The notes under the pieces are model-generated. The model was not told the DNA's origin. It saw only the letters and a program-made list of their open reading frames with translations, and did no database searches. Below are positions 4,659-7,485 of a stretch of 21,032 nt of DNA, one piece after another (position 1 is the stretch's first letter; every line of letters begins with the position of its first letter). The stretch is from positions 1 to 21,032 of the forward strand of contig SUPR01000064.1 in NCBI GenBank assembly GCA_005191425.1. Reading direction: 5' to 3'. This DNA comes from Candidatus Helarchaeota ASGARD archaeon Hel_GB_B (lineage in GTDB: Archaea > Asgardarchaeota > Lokiarchaeia > Helarchaeales > HEL-GB-B). Both the position numbers and the translations under genes were made by a program.

Positions 4659-4847
4659 TCAATATTGTCTTTGGCTAAACCCTTTAATGAAATTTGTATA
4701 AAAAATCGTTGCACATTCAATACAAAAAATTTGTCCATCAATTACTTTAAAATTATTATCAGTAATTTCCTTTCTACAATTAATTACTGAACATCTATTA
4801 ACATTGCCTTCAAAAATCTGTTTTAAAAATCTCAAAAAGTATTTCAT
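4659..4847 (-). CDS. Small Zn-finger protein (C-x4-C-x17-C-x2-C, treble-clef/LIM-half-like)
   Basis: 62 aa ORF co-oriented between trpB2 and the dehydrogenases; CSVINC...IDGQIFCIEC. Confidence 0.6.
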   Translation of the reverse strand: MKYFLRFLKQIFEGNVNRCSVINCRKEITDNNFKVIDGQIFCIECATIFYTNFIKGFSQRQY

Positions 4848-4922: not shown

Positions 4923-6233
4923 TTAAATACCCAGAACTTGTTCGTATCCAGAAAGATCCATCAATCCATGACCAGAATGGTTAAAAACAATGACCTTTTT
5001 TTCGCCGGTTTCTTTACATTTTCGAGCTTCTACGATTGCATGATGAATTGCGTGAGCTGTTTCAGGAGCTGGGATTAAACCCTCAACTTTTGCAAAAAGA
5101 TCTGCCGATTGAAATATTTCTTCTTGTGGATAGGTTACAGACCTAATAAGGCCTTCATGGACAAATAAAGATGCCGAAGGTGCAGCACCATGATATCTTA
5201 ATCCACCTGCATGAATGGGTGGTGGTATAAAGTCGCAACCCAAGGTATACATTTTTAATAATGGAGTTGATTTTGCTGTATCACCGAAATCATATCTATA
5301 TTCGCCATTAGTCATCGAAGGGCATGCAGTAGGTTCGACCGCTACAATATCAATTTTCTTACACTCTTTTCGGAGAGATTTACCCAAAAAAGGATAACAA
5401 AAGCCTGAAAAATTTGAGCCACCACCGACACAACCGATCATTATATCTGGAACTTTGTCTATTTTTTCAAATTGTTTGACAACTTCTTCTCCAACAATGC
5501 TTTGGTGTAGAAGAACAAAGCTTAATACACTTCCAAGCGAATATTTTGCTGTAGGGTCTTTCATAGCAACTTCAATAGCTTCACTGATAGCTATGCCTAA
5601 AGAACCATTATATTTTGCTTTATCTTTCAAAAATTCTTTACCACATTCTGTTTGATCACTTGGACTTGCCACACAATCAGCGCCGTATAAGTTCATAATT
5701 ACCTTTCTGAGTGGTTTTTGTTCATAGCTTATTCTGACCATAAAGACTTTACATTTAATTCCAAATAAGGCACATGCATAAGACAGAGCAGAACCCCATT
5801 GTCCAGCGCCAGTTTCGGTAGTTAATGTTTCCAGCCCCTCTTTTGCTGCATAATAAGCTTGCGCAACAGCAGTGTTTGGTTTGTGACTGCCTGGAGGAGA
5901 CAAATCTTCTCTTTTATAATAAATTTCAGCTGGAGTATCCAAATATTTTTCTAACCTAACAGCTCGACATAAGGGTGACGGTCTTCCAAGACTATTCATA
6001 TAGATATCCAATAATTCATCGGGTATATCAATATATCTTTTATCACTGACTTCTTGTTTTATACATTCTACTGGAAACAATTCCATAAGGGGTTCAGGAG
6101 GCATTGGTTCTCTAGTTGCCGGGTTCAGAGGGGGAGGAAAAGGTACTGGAGAATCTACGGAAATATTGTACCATTTTCTTGGCATTTCATCAAGTGTTAA
6201 AATAACTCTATTTTTTTCGACCATTTTTATCAA
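4923..6233 (-). CDS. trpB2: Tryptophan synthase beta chain, type 2 (TrpB2); probable start ATG 6224
   Basis: PLP lysine motif GSHKPN, TTETGAGQWG, VGGGSNF, HAGGLRYHG, PAPETAHA and the long N-terminal WYNI extension typical of TrpB2. Confidence 0.95.
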   Translation of the reverse strand: MIKMVEKNRVILTLDEMPRKWYNISVDSPVPFPPPLNPATREPMPPEPLMELFPVECIKQEVSDKRYIDIPDELLDIYMNSLGRPSPLCRAVRLEKYLDTPAEIYYKREDLSPPGSHKPNTAVAQAYYAAKEGLETLTTETGAGQWGSALSYACALFGIKCKVFMVRISYEQKPLRKVIMNLYGADCVASPSDQTECGKEFLKDKAKYNGSLGIAISEAIEVAMKDPTAKYSLGSVLSFVLLHQSIVGEEVVKQFEKIDKVPDIMIGCVGGGSNFSGFCYPFLGKSLRKECKKIDIVAVEPTACPSMTNGEYRYDFGDTAKSTPLLKMYTLGCDFIPPPIHAGGLRYHGAAPSASLFVHEGLIRSVTYPQEEIFQSADLFAKVEGLIPAPETAHAIHHAIVEARKCKETGEKKVIVFNHSGHGLMDLSGYEQVLGI

Positions 6234-6360
6234 CTATACATATTACATTATCAAAATTTTTTAATTTTTATTTTTAAAATTTTTAAAAATTTATTAAAAT
6301 TCAATAAAATATTTTGTAACAAAAATTATTTATTAAAATCTGTTGAATATGACACTAATT

Positions 6361-6495
6361 TTAGTTATTCCAAGGCCATATAAAAGGAGTATCAGTGAAG
6401 TTTAAAAAAAAATCACTATTTACCGACTTTTTTCTAAAAATTCCGTTCTTTACTTTAAATCGTGTCATATATATCCTTTGGTGTTTATTATGCAT
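6361..6495 (-). CDS. Candidate Trp leader peptide (44 aa from ATG 6495, or 35 aa from ATG 6468): ...MTRFKVKNGIFRKKSVNSDFFLNFTDTPFIWPWNN
   Basis: Hand-translated. Two TGG codons near the stop; located in the 5' region of trpB2; flanked by a 9-bp inverted repeat (6347-6355 and 6462-6470). Confidence 0.45.
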   Translation of the reverse strand: MHNKHQRIYMTRFKVKNGIFRKKSVNSDFFLNFTDTPFIWPWNN

Positions 6496-6516
6496 TATTG
6501 TATTTTTTTTTTTAAT

Positions 6517-6536
6517 ATTGTCATTTTTTTGACAAT
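6517..6536. promoter_or_regulatory. Inverted repeat ATTGTCA-N6-TGACAAT (operator or 5' hairpin) in the divergent trpB2/ACT-regulator region
   Basis: Perfect 7-6-7 palindrome read directly from the sequence. Confidence 0.45.
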
Positions 6537-6558
6537 TATGTGGTTTTGGTTACATACA

Positions 6559-6577
6559 TTTATATTTAAACTTTACG
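6559..6577. promoter_or_regulatory. Putative TATA box (TTTAAATA on minus strand, 6563-6570) with purine-rich BRE-like flank; may serve both directions
   Basis: TTTATATTTAAA at 6559-6570. Assignment is weak in such AT-rich DNA. Confidence 0.3.
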
Positions 6578-6619
6578 GATATTAATATAGAAAACTAGTT
6601 TGAATAAATTGGTATAACA

Positions 6620-7189
6620 ATGTCGCTTAATAAAGATGATCTAGAAAATTTTTGGAAAATAATTAAGAACCTATTTAAGAAGAGCCCCAAAAAAATTGAA
6701 GTAATCAAGTTGCTATTGATGTCTGGTTTTTCAATTAAAAATAAAAAGATTTATTGCAATAATATAGAAATTCCCAATACTAGTATTGCAAGCGCTTTAA
6801 AAATAGATAGGAGGTCAGTAATTGGTACTATTGAGAAAATATATCCATCTAACAATGAGATTTCTAAGCTTAACGATGAAGATAAAAAAAATTTAGCTAT
6901 AATACAAAAGGTGTTGAATAATATTTTCCCCGTTGGAATCTTTGTTTGGGATAATAATAAGAAGGTAATTGAAGTTACTGCCGATTCAAAGGAATTTGGA
7001 ATAATATCAAATGTTACAAAATTTATTGCGGATGAAAAAATAAGTATAAGACAAATAATTGCTACTGACCCAGATTTAGACCTTAATCCGCGATTGACTA
7101 TATTTACAAACGAAGAGGTTCCTGGAGAAACTTTATCAAAAATTTTGGAAATAAAAGGAGTCTTAACAGCATCATATGGTAAACGATAA
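6620..7189 (+). CDS. ACT-domain regulator of amino-acid metabolism (COG2150-like)
   Basis: N-terminal GFSIK..KIYCNNIEIP...IA.ALKIDRRSV (HTH-like); C-terminal ACT-like ISIRQIIATDPDL..PRLTIFT..VPG. Confidence 0.85.
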   Translation: MSLNKDDLENFWKIIKNLFKKSPKKIEVIKLLLMSGFSIKNKKIYCNNIEIPNTSIASALKIDRRSVIGTIEKIYPSNNEISKLNDEDKKNLAIIQKVLNNIFPVGIFVWDNNKKVIEVTADSKEFGIISNVTKFIADEKISIRQIIATDPDLDLNPRLTIFTNEEVPGETLSKILEIKGVLTASYGKR

Positions 7190-7218
7190 ATTACTTTTAT
7201 TTCAAAATATTTTAAAAA

Positions 7219-7485
7219 TTATTTTATCAAATTAACTTTTGCTGTAACTATTGTAATAACGTCCAATTGCTCCAGAAATATGAATAAATAGGGAAAACCA
7301 TCACTTTTTCTTACTATATACCCATATCTAAATTCATCATTTTCAGATTCTTCAATAGTCGCAATAATTTCGCCTTCAATATAATCCCCAAACTTTTCTT
7401 TTGCATCTTCTTTCATGTCAAGCCCAAAAAAATCACCAGTAAATCTATAAAACTCCCAAAATTTATCGTGCTCTTTTAATTTCAT
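7219..7485 (-). CDS. Small acidic hypothetical protein
   Basis: 88 aa ORF with a GGTGA Shine-Dalgarno-like motif upstream of the ATG. Confidence 0.65.
   Translation of the reverse strand: MKLKEHDKFWEFYRFTGDFFGLDMKEDAKEKFGDYIEGEIIATIEESENDEFRYGYIVRKSDGFPYLFIFLEQLDVITIVTAKVNLIK

Follow-up and report, generated by a model that had tools for sequence, protein, structure and literature searches.

A conserved candidate tryptophan-codon leader ORF upstream of trpB2 in an Asgard archaeon

Overview

The 21,032-nucleotide contig SUPR01000064.1 of the Asgard archaeon Candidatus Helarchaeota Hel_GB_B (this whole stretch of DNA is hereafter called the window) carries, upstream of the gene trpB2, an open reading frame (ORF) that ends with two closely spaced tryptophan codons. 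We judge, with a probability of roughly 60%, that this upstream ORF (uORF; positions 6495 or 6468 to 6361) is a cis-acting tryptophan-codon leader ORF located on the trpB2 mRNA, and that it would act by the ribosome-based steps proposed below. The parts of this reading differ in their merits. The uORF is real and, by sequence comparison, conserved; it very probably serves as a tryptophan-sensing leader ORF, and the sensor portion of the model is well supported and in our estimation likely to be correct. The weakest step is the termination output in the window's own lineage, whose prospects appear to us somewhat poorer than even.

The window is contig C145 of a metagenome-assembled genome of 3.54 Mb that is 93.7% complete and has a GC content of approximately 28%. 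Its DNA is present in metagenomic runs from hydrothermal vents and marine sediments, and the names attached to the closest TrpB2 homologues are those of Helarchaeota or Lokiarchaeota archaea. Profile searches of this 93.7%-complete genome yielded zero matches to TrpA, IGPS, TrpB1 and TrpE, and the single match to PF00591 is weak (45.7 bits) and lies inside a 508-codon open frame. Given that trpB2 is the sole tryptophan-synthesis gene detected, with some room left for others by the incompleteness of the assembly, it is the natural target of control by tryptophan in this organism.

Anatomy of the leader

The features that define the leader and its target are as follows.

6361 to 6495, minus strand: main leader uORF of 44 codons plus stop (ATG 6495-6493, TAA 6363-6361), read from the sequence
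6370 to 6378, minus strand: two Trp codons (TGG 6378-6376 and TGG 6372-6370) with CCT between them, the proposed sensing codons, from sequence and conservation
6495 to 6524, minus strand: 9-codon uORF (MTILKKKIQ) with stop codon TAA, which overlaps the main uORF's first ATG as TAATG, from the sequence
6229 to 6234, minus strand: Shine-Dalgarno (SD)-like element GTTGAT, 5 nt 5' of the trpB2 ATG, from the sequence
4923 to 6224, minus strand: trpB2, coding for a TrpB-like pyridoxal phosphate enzyme of 433 amino acids (NCBIfam PRK12391, 672 bits; TIGR01415, 631 bits; both above cut-off)

The main uORF encodes a peptide with the C-terminus F-I-W-P-W-N-N-stop, and an internal ATG at 6468-6466 offers an alternative start that would give 35 codons. 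From its stop codon to the trpB2 ATG at 6224 there are 137 nt. The entire gap between trpB2 and the divergent neighbouring gene, which belongs to the TrpY family of regulators, measures 395 bp and is very AT-rich; the predicted leader spans 315 nt of it with a GC content of 18%. A first-pass annotation of this DNA, made from the letters alone, had proposed these uORF coordinates, the internal start, the Trp-codon ending, the 137-nt spacing and the TAATG overlap with the 9-codon ORF at 6524-6495, and all of these are correct on reading the sequence. It had also called the uORF unannotated, a label that does not apply everywhere: on a 99%-identical strain contig, a 35-residue gene was called on it.

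The peptide encoded by the main uORF matches no family in Pfam. The small upstream ORF has a counterpart of 9 codons in the L006 lineage, where it overlaps the main uORF start as ATGA, and it is absent in L111 and L116. At the position of the SD-like element, relatives carry GTGAT, AGGTGA or GGAGGT, and the presence of such an element before trpB2 argues that its mRNA has a leader.

Conservation of the Trp codons in related archaea

The genus-level set is defined by TrpB2 homologues that are 79-84% identical to that of the window, and it comprises six lineages including the window; one 84%-identical homologue is not among the leaders compared. A uORF ending W-x(1-2)-W-x(1-3)-stop is kept in four of these six lineages, whereas the peptide otherwise differs and its length varies (25-44 codons). 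The three lineages that share this ending with the window are listed below.

L006, L112, L113, L114 and L119: uORF of 40 codons, ending S-W-L-Y-W-R-K-L, 115 nt to trpB2
L111: uORF of 29 codons, ending F-T-W-H-W-H, 106 nt to trpB2
L116 and L117: uORF of 25 codons, ending P-F-I-W-P-W-C-D, 102 nt to trpB2

When the six lineages are aligned, just three elements are visibly held in common: the TATA box (in the five lineages that reach it), the Trp-codon block, and the SD element and ATG of trpB2. The Trp-codon block itself is alignable among the window, L116 and L118 only. Within the P-F-I-W-P-W block, the window and L116 differ by synonymous changes (CCT/CCA for Pro, ATA/ATT for Ile), and the order-level relative L144 has ATC for Ile. 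Such synonymous changes inside the block are what selection at the level of translation predicts.

A wider comparison drew on further trpB2 loci, of which 29 came from a search for relatives, 13 were stretches chosen by family and 3 came from a protein collection. The unselected tally is made up of the window, the 29 relatives-search loci and the 13 family-chosen loci (43 loci from 21 genera), and it counts any ORF ending W-x(0-5)-W-x(0-4)-stop that lies more than 60 nt before trpB2. On the sense strand, 35 of the 43 loci, representing 16 of the 21 genera, carry such an ORF; the antisense strand carries one at a single locus (1/43), and shuffled sequences lead to an expectation of about 6% per locus. 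We state no P-value because related genomes are not independent. Judged from these sequences, the recurrence of the ending in 16 genera with different peptide contexts is far beyond chance.

The endings themselves are diverse. Order-level relatives have uORFs that end F-F-W-C-W-Q, W-R-W-Q-W-C-W-R-W-Q, I-W-P-W-R-K-L-T-W-H-W or R-W-H-W-R-W-Q-W-Q. In family f4 the ORFs have 16-26 codons and end, for example, W-Q-W-P-W-R-W-Q or F-W-R-W-Q-W-P-W-R-F, with synonymous variation in the conserved block (CAG/CAA, CCT/CCG), and the endings in families f5, f6 and f7 include A-W-P-W-H, T-W-P-W-H, S-W-A-W-H and N-W-A-W-P-R-R-E. Across families, 0-4 codons separate the last Trp codon from the stop. The first-pass annotation had named Trp codons and ORF length among the features to compare in the trpB2 upstream regions of related Asgard genomes; the Trp codons proved to be conserved (4/6 lineages at the genus level, 35/43 loci at the class level), and the length differs among genus-level relatives, as given above.

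A scan of metagenomes returned the source contig and TrpB2 relatives with at most 63% identity, and the Trp-codon uORF was not found in most of the trpB2 contigs with 46-63% identity. As an exception, L059 (Ga0180009_10001275), whose TrpB2 is 55% identical, has a 25-codon uORF containing N-N-W-C-W-W-W approximately 141 nt before trpB2, and this sequence hints at similar leaders in a further lineage.

The frequency with which such endings arise in this genome can be estimated from all ATG-started ORFs of 20-60 codons, of which 27 of 14073 (0.19%) end W-x(1,2)-W-x(1,3)-stop, 10 of them intergenic. Shuffling of the window's trpB2 upstream region yields an ORF with such a Trp-ending in 3% of cases. 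The estimate in the first-pass annotation, that two TGG codons would appear by chance at a rate of a few percent, was too generous to chance. The remaining intergenic W-x-W ORFs in the genome belong to a separate small-protein family or are isolated cases, and the regions before its two genes for class-Ib aminoacyl-tRNA synthetases yielded no Trp leader.

A second leader copy before trpD and RNA-derived contigs in a relative

The relative G046, for which a closed genome of 6.0 Mb is available, has a trpB2 leader ending A-W-P-W-H-stop that is followed directly by a long hairpin and a U-tract. A second copy of this leader, 90% identical over 105 nt and with the same hairpin, is located approximately 315 nt before trpD, whose product matches Pfam PF00591 with 305 bits and PF02885 with 68 bits. 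When one leader precedes two different transcription units for tryptophan synthesis, as here, this is classically taken as the mark of a cis-regulator that they share.

The trpD copy (L136:1466-1650, corresponding to approximately 3938780-3938960 on the minus strand of G046:C1) ends A-W-P-W-H-K-L-stop, and CCAATATT replaces the U-tract after its hairpin. Candidate trpD genes in G045, G051, G018 and G049 were judged not to code for TrpD; their matches score 54-60 bits and lie in open frames of 514-568 codons.

Contigs derived from RNA-seq data of G046 in four runs extend unbroken from 11 codons before the uORF stop, via the hairpin, the U-tract and the spacer, into trpB2. The depth of these bridging contigs is 31-226, compared with 3-38 for the contig of a neighbouring gene. 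They break inside the uORF exactly at the start of an 83-nt near-repeat, which is the second leader copy.

The first-pass annotation had inferred a Trp-sensing leader peptide in an archaeon. This proposal gains strong support from the conserved Trp codons set within a variable peptide and from the strand bias (35/43 versus 1/43), as well as from the trpD copy and the RNA contigs of G046 that join uORF and trpB2.

Promoter region and the TrpY-family neighbour

Upstream of the uORF, the intergenic region contains a candidate promoter and a second candidate control layer.

6563 to 6576, minus strand: near-canonical archaeal transcription factor B recognition element (BRE) and TATA box, GTAAAG plus TTTAAATA, pointing to trpB2; putative promoter, from sequence and conservation
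6537 to 6541, minus strand: predicted transcription start near 6539, 23-26 nt past the TATA box, from the usual archaeal spacing
6517 to 6536, minus strand: inverted repeat ATTGTCA-N6-TGACAAT at the predicted 5' end, from the sequence; 7-bp hairpin in minimum free energy (MFE) and centroid folds
6620 to 7189, plus strand: gene for a TrpY-family regulator of 189 amino acids, divergent from trpB2 (NCBIfam NF053754 TrpY_fam, E 5e-38)

The distance from TATA box to transcription start is characteristic in archaea, and it is this spacing that places the predicted start near 6539. A TTTA[AT]A[TA]A box whose 5' flank is rich in purines occurs at the same relative place in all those genus-level relatives whose contigs reach it and in the loci of family f2. 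The inverted repeat at 6517-6536 could form a hairpin at the 5' terminus of the RNA, or else it may be an operator candidate for the TrpY-like protein, and the words TGTCA and TGACA are also found near the TATA box in L006 and L111.

The product of the divergent gene scores 130.6 bits against NF053754, which is under the 180-bit cut-off of the family. No canonical TGTACA TRP box is present in 6225-6619; elsewhere in the window there are four TGTACA words, which is at chance level, and in L006 and L010 a TGTACA adjoins the TATA box. A divergent TrpY-like gene is found in every genus-level relative whose contig is long enough, and the same arrangement occurs in families f1 and f2. By analogy with known TrpY systems, the TrpY-family repressor probably adds a second layer, one at transcription initiation that would respond to free tryptophan.

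The distribution of the two elements differs by family: f2 has TrpY only, f1 has TrpY and the uORF, and f3 to f7 have the uORF but no TrpY gene next to it. This pattern suggests two control layers that are partly redundant, and such redundancy would explain the loss of the Trp codons in some lineages of the window's genus. The first-pass annotation had described the archaeal trp control known to it as repressor-based (TrpY). Its setting of the leader against that mode of control does not stand as a contrast, since the divergent neighbour is itself a TrpY-family gene and both layers thus probably act at trpB2.

In the short intergenic regions of family f2 (L010:2740-2980, L009:1301-1540), a mini-ORF with a single Trp codon ends 2-6 nt before the trpB2 ATG, and in L010 its TGA stop lies inside the Shine-Dalgarno sequence AGGTGA. 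These mini-ORFs may reflect translational coupling or chance.

RNA folding and candidate termination signals

Three segments of the predicted leader RNA bear on how a ribosome on the uORF might influence trpB2 expression.

6457 to 6470, minus strand: 5' strand of a long-range helix, covering the internal ATG 6468, from the predicted fold
6347 to 6361, minus strand: 3' strand of the helix, starting at the uORF stop, predicted to pair with 6470-6457 or with 6381-6373
6285 to 6338, minus strand: U-rich spacer with T4 at 6338-6335, T5 at 6325-6321, T4 at 6309-6306, T4 at 6299-6296 and T5 at 6289-6285, putative termination sites

The first-pass annotation had noted that GTGTCATAT (6355-6347) and ATATGACAC (6470-6462) are exactly complementary and had interpreted this as a pairing that sequesters the start codon. 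The complementarity is confirmed on reading the sequence, and it forms part of a longer, bulged helix of 14 bp (6470-6457 with 6361-6347), which both the MFE and centroid folds contain. The 9-mer pairing is not beyond chance, given that among 1000 dinucleotide-shuffled versions of the 315-nt leader 94% hold a perfect inverted repeat of at least 9 bp, and we rejected the 9-mer as stand-alone evidence for this reason. The 136-nt segment with this helix scores z = -1.99, with 5/200 shuffles as good, which is suggestive only. The closest strain differs from the window at 2/404 positions and is nearly identical, so it is useless for assessing covariation of the helix. An alternative hairpin, in which 6361-6347 pairs with 6381-6373 and thereby holds the first Trp codon, has 9 bp and a predicted stability of -5.1 kcal/mol (z 0.06).

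Leaders from other families show a geometry that is easier to interpret. In families f5 and f6, a clear, terminator-like hairpin containing GC begins from or within the stop codon (GCTCTAAG...CTTAGAGC or CGAGAGTAATT...AATTACTCTCG), a run of U4-U5 follows 5-9 nt later (U4-U6 for the two families as a whole), and z-scores fall to as low as -3.5 and -4.0. An alignment of eight sequences contains one covarying pair in this hairpin (A-U to G-C). A ribosome footprint reaches roughly 12-15 nt downstream of the P site; in this model, when the last UGG occupies the A site, the ribosome would extend over the initial bases of the hairpin's 5' arm. The f4 leaders carry a short hairpin that holds the last UGG in its 5' arm and the stop in its loop, and a T5-T6 run occurs 20-35 nt later; the arms differ by subgroup (GGCGT/ACGCC, GTTGGC/GCCAAC, ATTGGC/GCCAAT, AGTGGCA/TGTCACT). 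Global analysis of the f4 leaders with RNAalifold recovers some but not all of the hairpins that can be seen by eye, since the arms occupy shifted positions in different subgroups. As modelled, the hairpin geometry of families f4, f5 and f6 fits a simple attenuator.

Leaders of family f4 (L022:714-949, L020:1259-1494, L013, L018, L034) also have two further hairpins between uORF and trpB2. These exhibit compensatory changes, are of the types CATTAATTATATTG...CAATATTTTAATG and CACATC...GATGTG, and are kept in genera without the Trp uORF.

A switch that masks the trpB2 ribosome-binding region was considered and rejected. Folds of eight leaders in which the ribosome footprint was masked place the SD-AUG region at 0.5-0.85 unpaired in the free, stalled and terminating states alike, and masking at the last UGG or at the stop leaves its accessibility unchanged, which argues against SD sequestration. 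Within the genus, ribosome-masked folds reveal no consistent switch.

Proposed mechanism and its weighing

With these features in mind, we propose that transcription would start near 6539 from the conserved BRE/TATA box, and that a ribosome would translate the uORF, as the conserved ORF, its stop position and the synonymous changes suggest. When charged tRNA-Trp is scarce, the ribosome would be expected, by analogy with bacterial leader peptides, to stall at the UGG pair, whose members precede the stop by 4 and 2 sense codons. The stalled ribosome would then raise trpB2 expression. The most likely output is relief of premature termination in the U-rich 137-nt spacer, with the stalled ribosome blocking the folding of RNA at the uORF end. 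Once a ribosome has completed the uORF and departed, a hairpin could form before the U-tract, as would fit the geometry of the f4-f6 leaders.

Viewed more broadly, we consider it slightly better than an even bet that tryptophan synthesis in Lokiarchaeia-type Asgards is controlled, ancestrally and throughout the class, by leader peptides that sense charged tRNA-Trp, that this control is combined in the window's genus with a TrpY-type repressor so as to integrate free tryptophan and charged tRNA-Trp, and that it represents the first archaeal case of ribosome-mediated attenuation.

Several observations weigh against the proposal. Some lineages lack the sensor: in L118:1-204 (contig ERZ27256772, 80% TrpB2 identity) the two codons have become CGG (W to R) and TGC (W to C), and the homologous frame reads F-P-F-V-R-S-C-N-D, has lost its stop and stays open for 13 codons further. 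A Trp-codon uORF is absent from the 260-bp intergenic region of L115, and family f2 (TrpY-adjacent, its intergenic regions only some 150 bp long) and three f4 genera likewise yielded none. The trpB2 transcript start is a prediction, no RNA run containing window positions 5600-7200 having been found in our search, and weak TATA-like words (TTTAAAAA) between uORF and trpB2 are candidates for a separate trpB2 promoter. The RNA support from G046 consists of contigs from one study on a distant relative, and these document co-occurrence on RNA-derived assemblies rather than transcript ends or strands.

The termination step faces objections of its own. Hairpins at the window's uORF end are AT-rich and no better than those of shuffles (z = 0.06, -0.87 and -0.38; genus mean z -0.4), and the T-runs of the spacer are unremarkable in DNA so rich in AT. 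The stronger hairpins of L006, L111 and L116 start 12-22 nt past the stop, outside the footprint of a stalled ribosome, and they stay folded in all modelled ribosome states. Moreover, we know of no archaeon in which leader-peptide attenuation has been demonstrated. Oligo-U can suffice for termination by archaeal polymerases, with no hairpin required, and aCPSF1/FttA ends untranslated transcripts; attenuation therefore stays plausible in the window's lineage, where it is proposed from homology of the sensor.

Alternative explanations

The same sensor might instead act after transcription, with the stalled ribosome shielding the mRNA from 5'-to-3' decay or altering (re-)initiation at trpB2 and with no regulated terminator involved. 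A stalled ribosome protects downstream mRNA from 5'-to-3' decay in ermC of Bacillus subtilis, and a 5' stabiliser of this kind needs no conserved downstream structure. It would suit spacers that differ widely among lineages, both in length (79-360 nt) and in sequence, and a genus in which no convincing regulated terminator is predicted. The constant accessibility of the SD-AUG region runs contrary to the variant of this explanation that relies on sequestering the SD, and the placement of the f5/f6 hairpin and U-tract exactly at the uORF stop is left unexplained. On balance, we regard a purely post-transcriptional output as rather unlikely.

We also considered whether the uORF codes for an independent small protein with a Trp-rich C-terminus, or for a peptide acting in trans, with trpB2 controlled by the TrpY-like repressor alone. 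The adjoining TrpY-family gene and the 35-residue gene called in the sister strain are compatible with this idea, and the genome does contain three small-protein paralogues ending P-W-A-P-W-P-F-P that have their own promoters and T-run terminators. Other than the Trp codons and their distance to the stop, however, neither the length nor the sequence of the uORF peptide is conserved; the ORF is always upstream of trpB2 and on its strand; the same leader stands before trpD in G046; and in most of the class the uORF occurs with no TrpY gene beside it. These points make a stand-alone protein quite improbable.

The three paralogues just mentioned are ORFs of 41-42 codons that end V-T-A-D-P-W-A-P-W-P-F-P (C56:32477-32602, plus strand; C92:36157-36282, minus strand; C101:860-988, plus strand). 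Each has its own strong TATA box approximately 25 nt before the ATG, an arrangement resembling leaderless genes, and long T-runs after it. From their sequences they look like a conserved small-protein family that is unrelated to trp genes.

An arrest peptide similar to TnaC could in principle sense free tryptophan in the exit tunnel, so that W-x-W-x-stop would act as a peptide and not as codons. The recurrence of W-P-W-H, W-P-W-Q, W-P-W-N-N and W-P-W-C-D, together with the constant nearness to the stop, does resemble arrest at termination. Against this, the positions between and after the Trp residues are freely variable (P, A, Q, R, H, C, L-Y), a peptide may have anywhere from 2 to 5 Trp residues, and induction by high tryptophan would regulate both trpD and a Trp-forming enzyme in the wrong direction. 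We thus view an arrest peptide as highly improbable.

There is very little chance that the UGG triplets are instead a binding site for a TRAP-like RNA-binding regulator and are not read as codons: the UGG repeats of family f4 do have a 6-nt period and are often UGGC, but the spacing varies (6, 9, 18 nt), the window has just two triplets, the UGGs in every case keep the frame of an ATG-started ORF whose stop comes 0-4 codons further on, and we know of no TRAP-like partner in archaea. Equally hard to credit is a chance ORF in an AT-rich divergent promoter region, which the 3% of shuffles and the chance-level 9-mer pairing would allow and which conservation in 16 genera and the strong strand bias contradict.

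Neighbouring small genes

Two small ORFs flank the trpB2-TrpY pair. Directly 3' of trpB2 lies a 62-codon ORF (4659-4847, minus strand) with a weak, below-cut-off match to the C4 zinc-finger family PF01258 (E 0.0096), and a gene of 58-66 residues is present at the same spot in genus-level relatives whose contigs extend past trpB2. Adjoining the TrpY-like gene is an 88-codon ORF (7219-7485, minus strand) that is without a family match; a gene of 88-91 residues adjoins the TrpY-like gene in those genus-level loci long enough to show that spot.

Comparison with known systems

Control of amino-acid genes by leader peptides is textbook bacterial biology and a hallmark of coupled transcription and translation. 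In the literature that we searched, no report of archaeal or Asgard leader peptides was found. The closest counterpart of the element described here is trpL of E. coli and Salmonella (Rfam Trp_leader, RF00513), which likewise places a short leader ORF with two Trp codons near its stop before a tryptophan-synthesis gene. In both cases the Trp codons are conserved but not the peptide, and a U-rich region follows; in families related to the window, a hairpin and a U-tract come after the stop. The differences are also substantial. The host is an Asgard archaeon, the uORF has 25-44 codons instead of 14, and the Trp codons alternate (W-x-W) where those of trpL are in tandem. No four-segment set of terminator and antiterminator can be identified in the window's lineage. 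The target is a stand-alone trpB2, and a TrpY-type repressor gene is coupled to it. The window matches no Rfam family at the gathering score, and in 6150-6650 there is no match to Trp_leader even at E-values up to 10. Given the absence of an Rfam match, the ORF length, the alternating Trp codons and the lack of a four-segment switch, we consider the element to be analogous to the bacterial Trp_leader RNA family and not a member of it. Archaeal termination, which relies on oligo-U and possibly a factor, is also unlike the bacterial hairpin mechanism.

TnaC of E. coli is a Trp-related leader peptide at which the ribosome stalls by the stop codon and thereby controls termination downstream, and to this extent it is similar. 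It senses free tryptophan via the conserved residues W12, D16 and P24 and induces a catabolic operon, whereas here only the Trp residues are conserved, flanking residues vary and the targets are biosynthetic. The element is therefore unlike TnaC, because its peptide is not conserved and the sign of regulation would be wrong.

In Methanothermobacter thermautotrophicus, trpY is divergent from trpEGCFBAD and TrpY also controls trpB2. The window resembles this arrangement in that a TrpY-family gene diverges from a trp gene across an AT-rich promoter region. It differs in that its match to the family is below the cut-off (130.6 versus 180 bits), in that TGTACA is missing from 6225-6619, and in that its 395-bp intergenic region holds a conserved Trp-codon uORF, which to our knowledge is not part of the described TrpY system. 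Repression by TrpY in Methanothermobacter reportedly takes place at the promoter, as work by Xie and Reeve in 2005 and by Karr et al. in 2008 is said to have established.

The proposed output is perhaps best compared with the E. coli pyrBI leader, a ribosome-occlusion attenuator in which the ribosome on the leader ORF decides the downstream fold without an elaborate antiterminator, as would fit families f5 and f6. The leaderless polycysteine uORF attenuators of mycobacteria provide another bacterial parallel for ribosome occlusion (bioRxiv 10.1101/834739). Both systems are bacterial, and the window's corresponding hairpin differs from theirs in being weak and only predicted.

New relative to these precedents are the two-Trp variant of a Helarchaeota-like genus, with its long ORF and AT-rich surroundings, the coupling of this variant with a TrpY-family gene, and natural variants in which the element has been lost. 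If our interpretation is correct, Asgard archaea use the position of a ribosome on nascent or young mRNA as a metabolic sensor, which would bear on functional coupling of transcription and translation in the lineage nearest to eukaryotes. The 315-nt element would then offer a compact system, with two mutable codons, for probing archaeal termination and coupling, and natural 'mutants' such as L118 without the Trp codons and L115 without the uORF mark the places where the two control layers can be compared.

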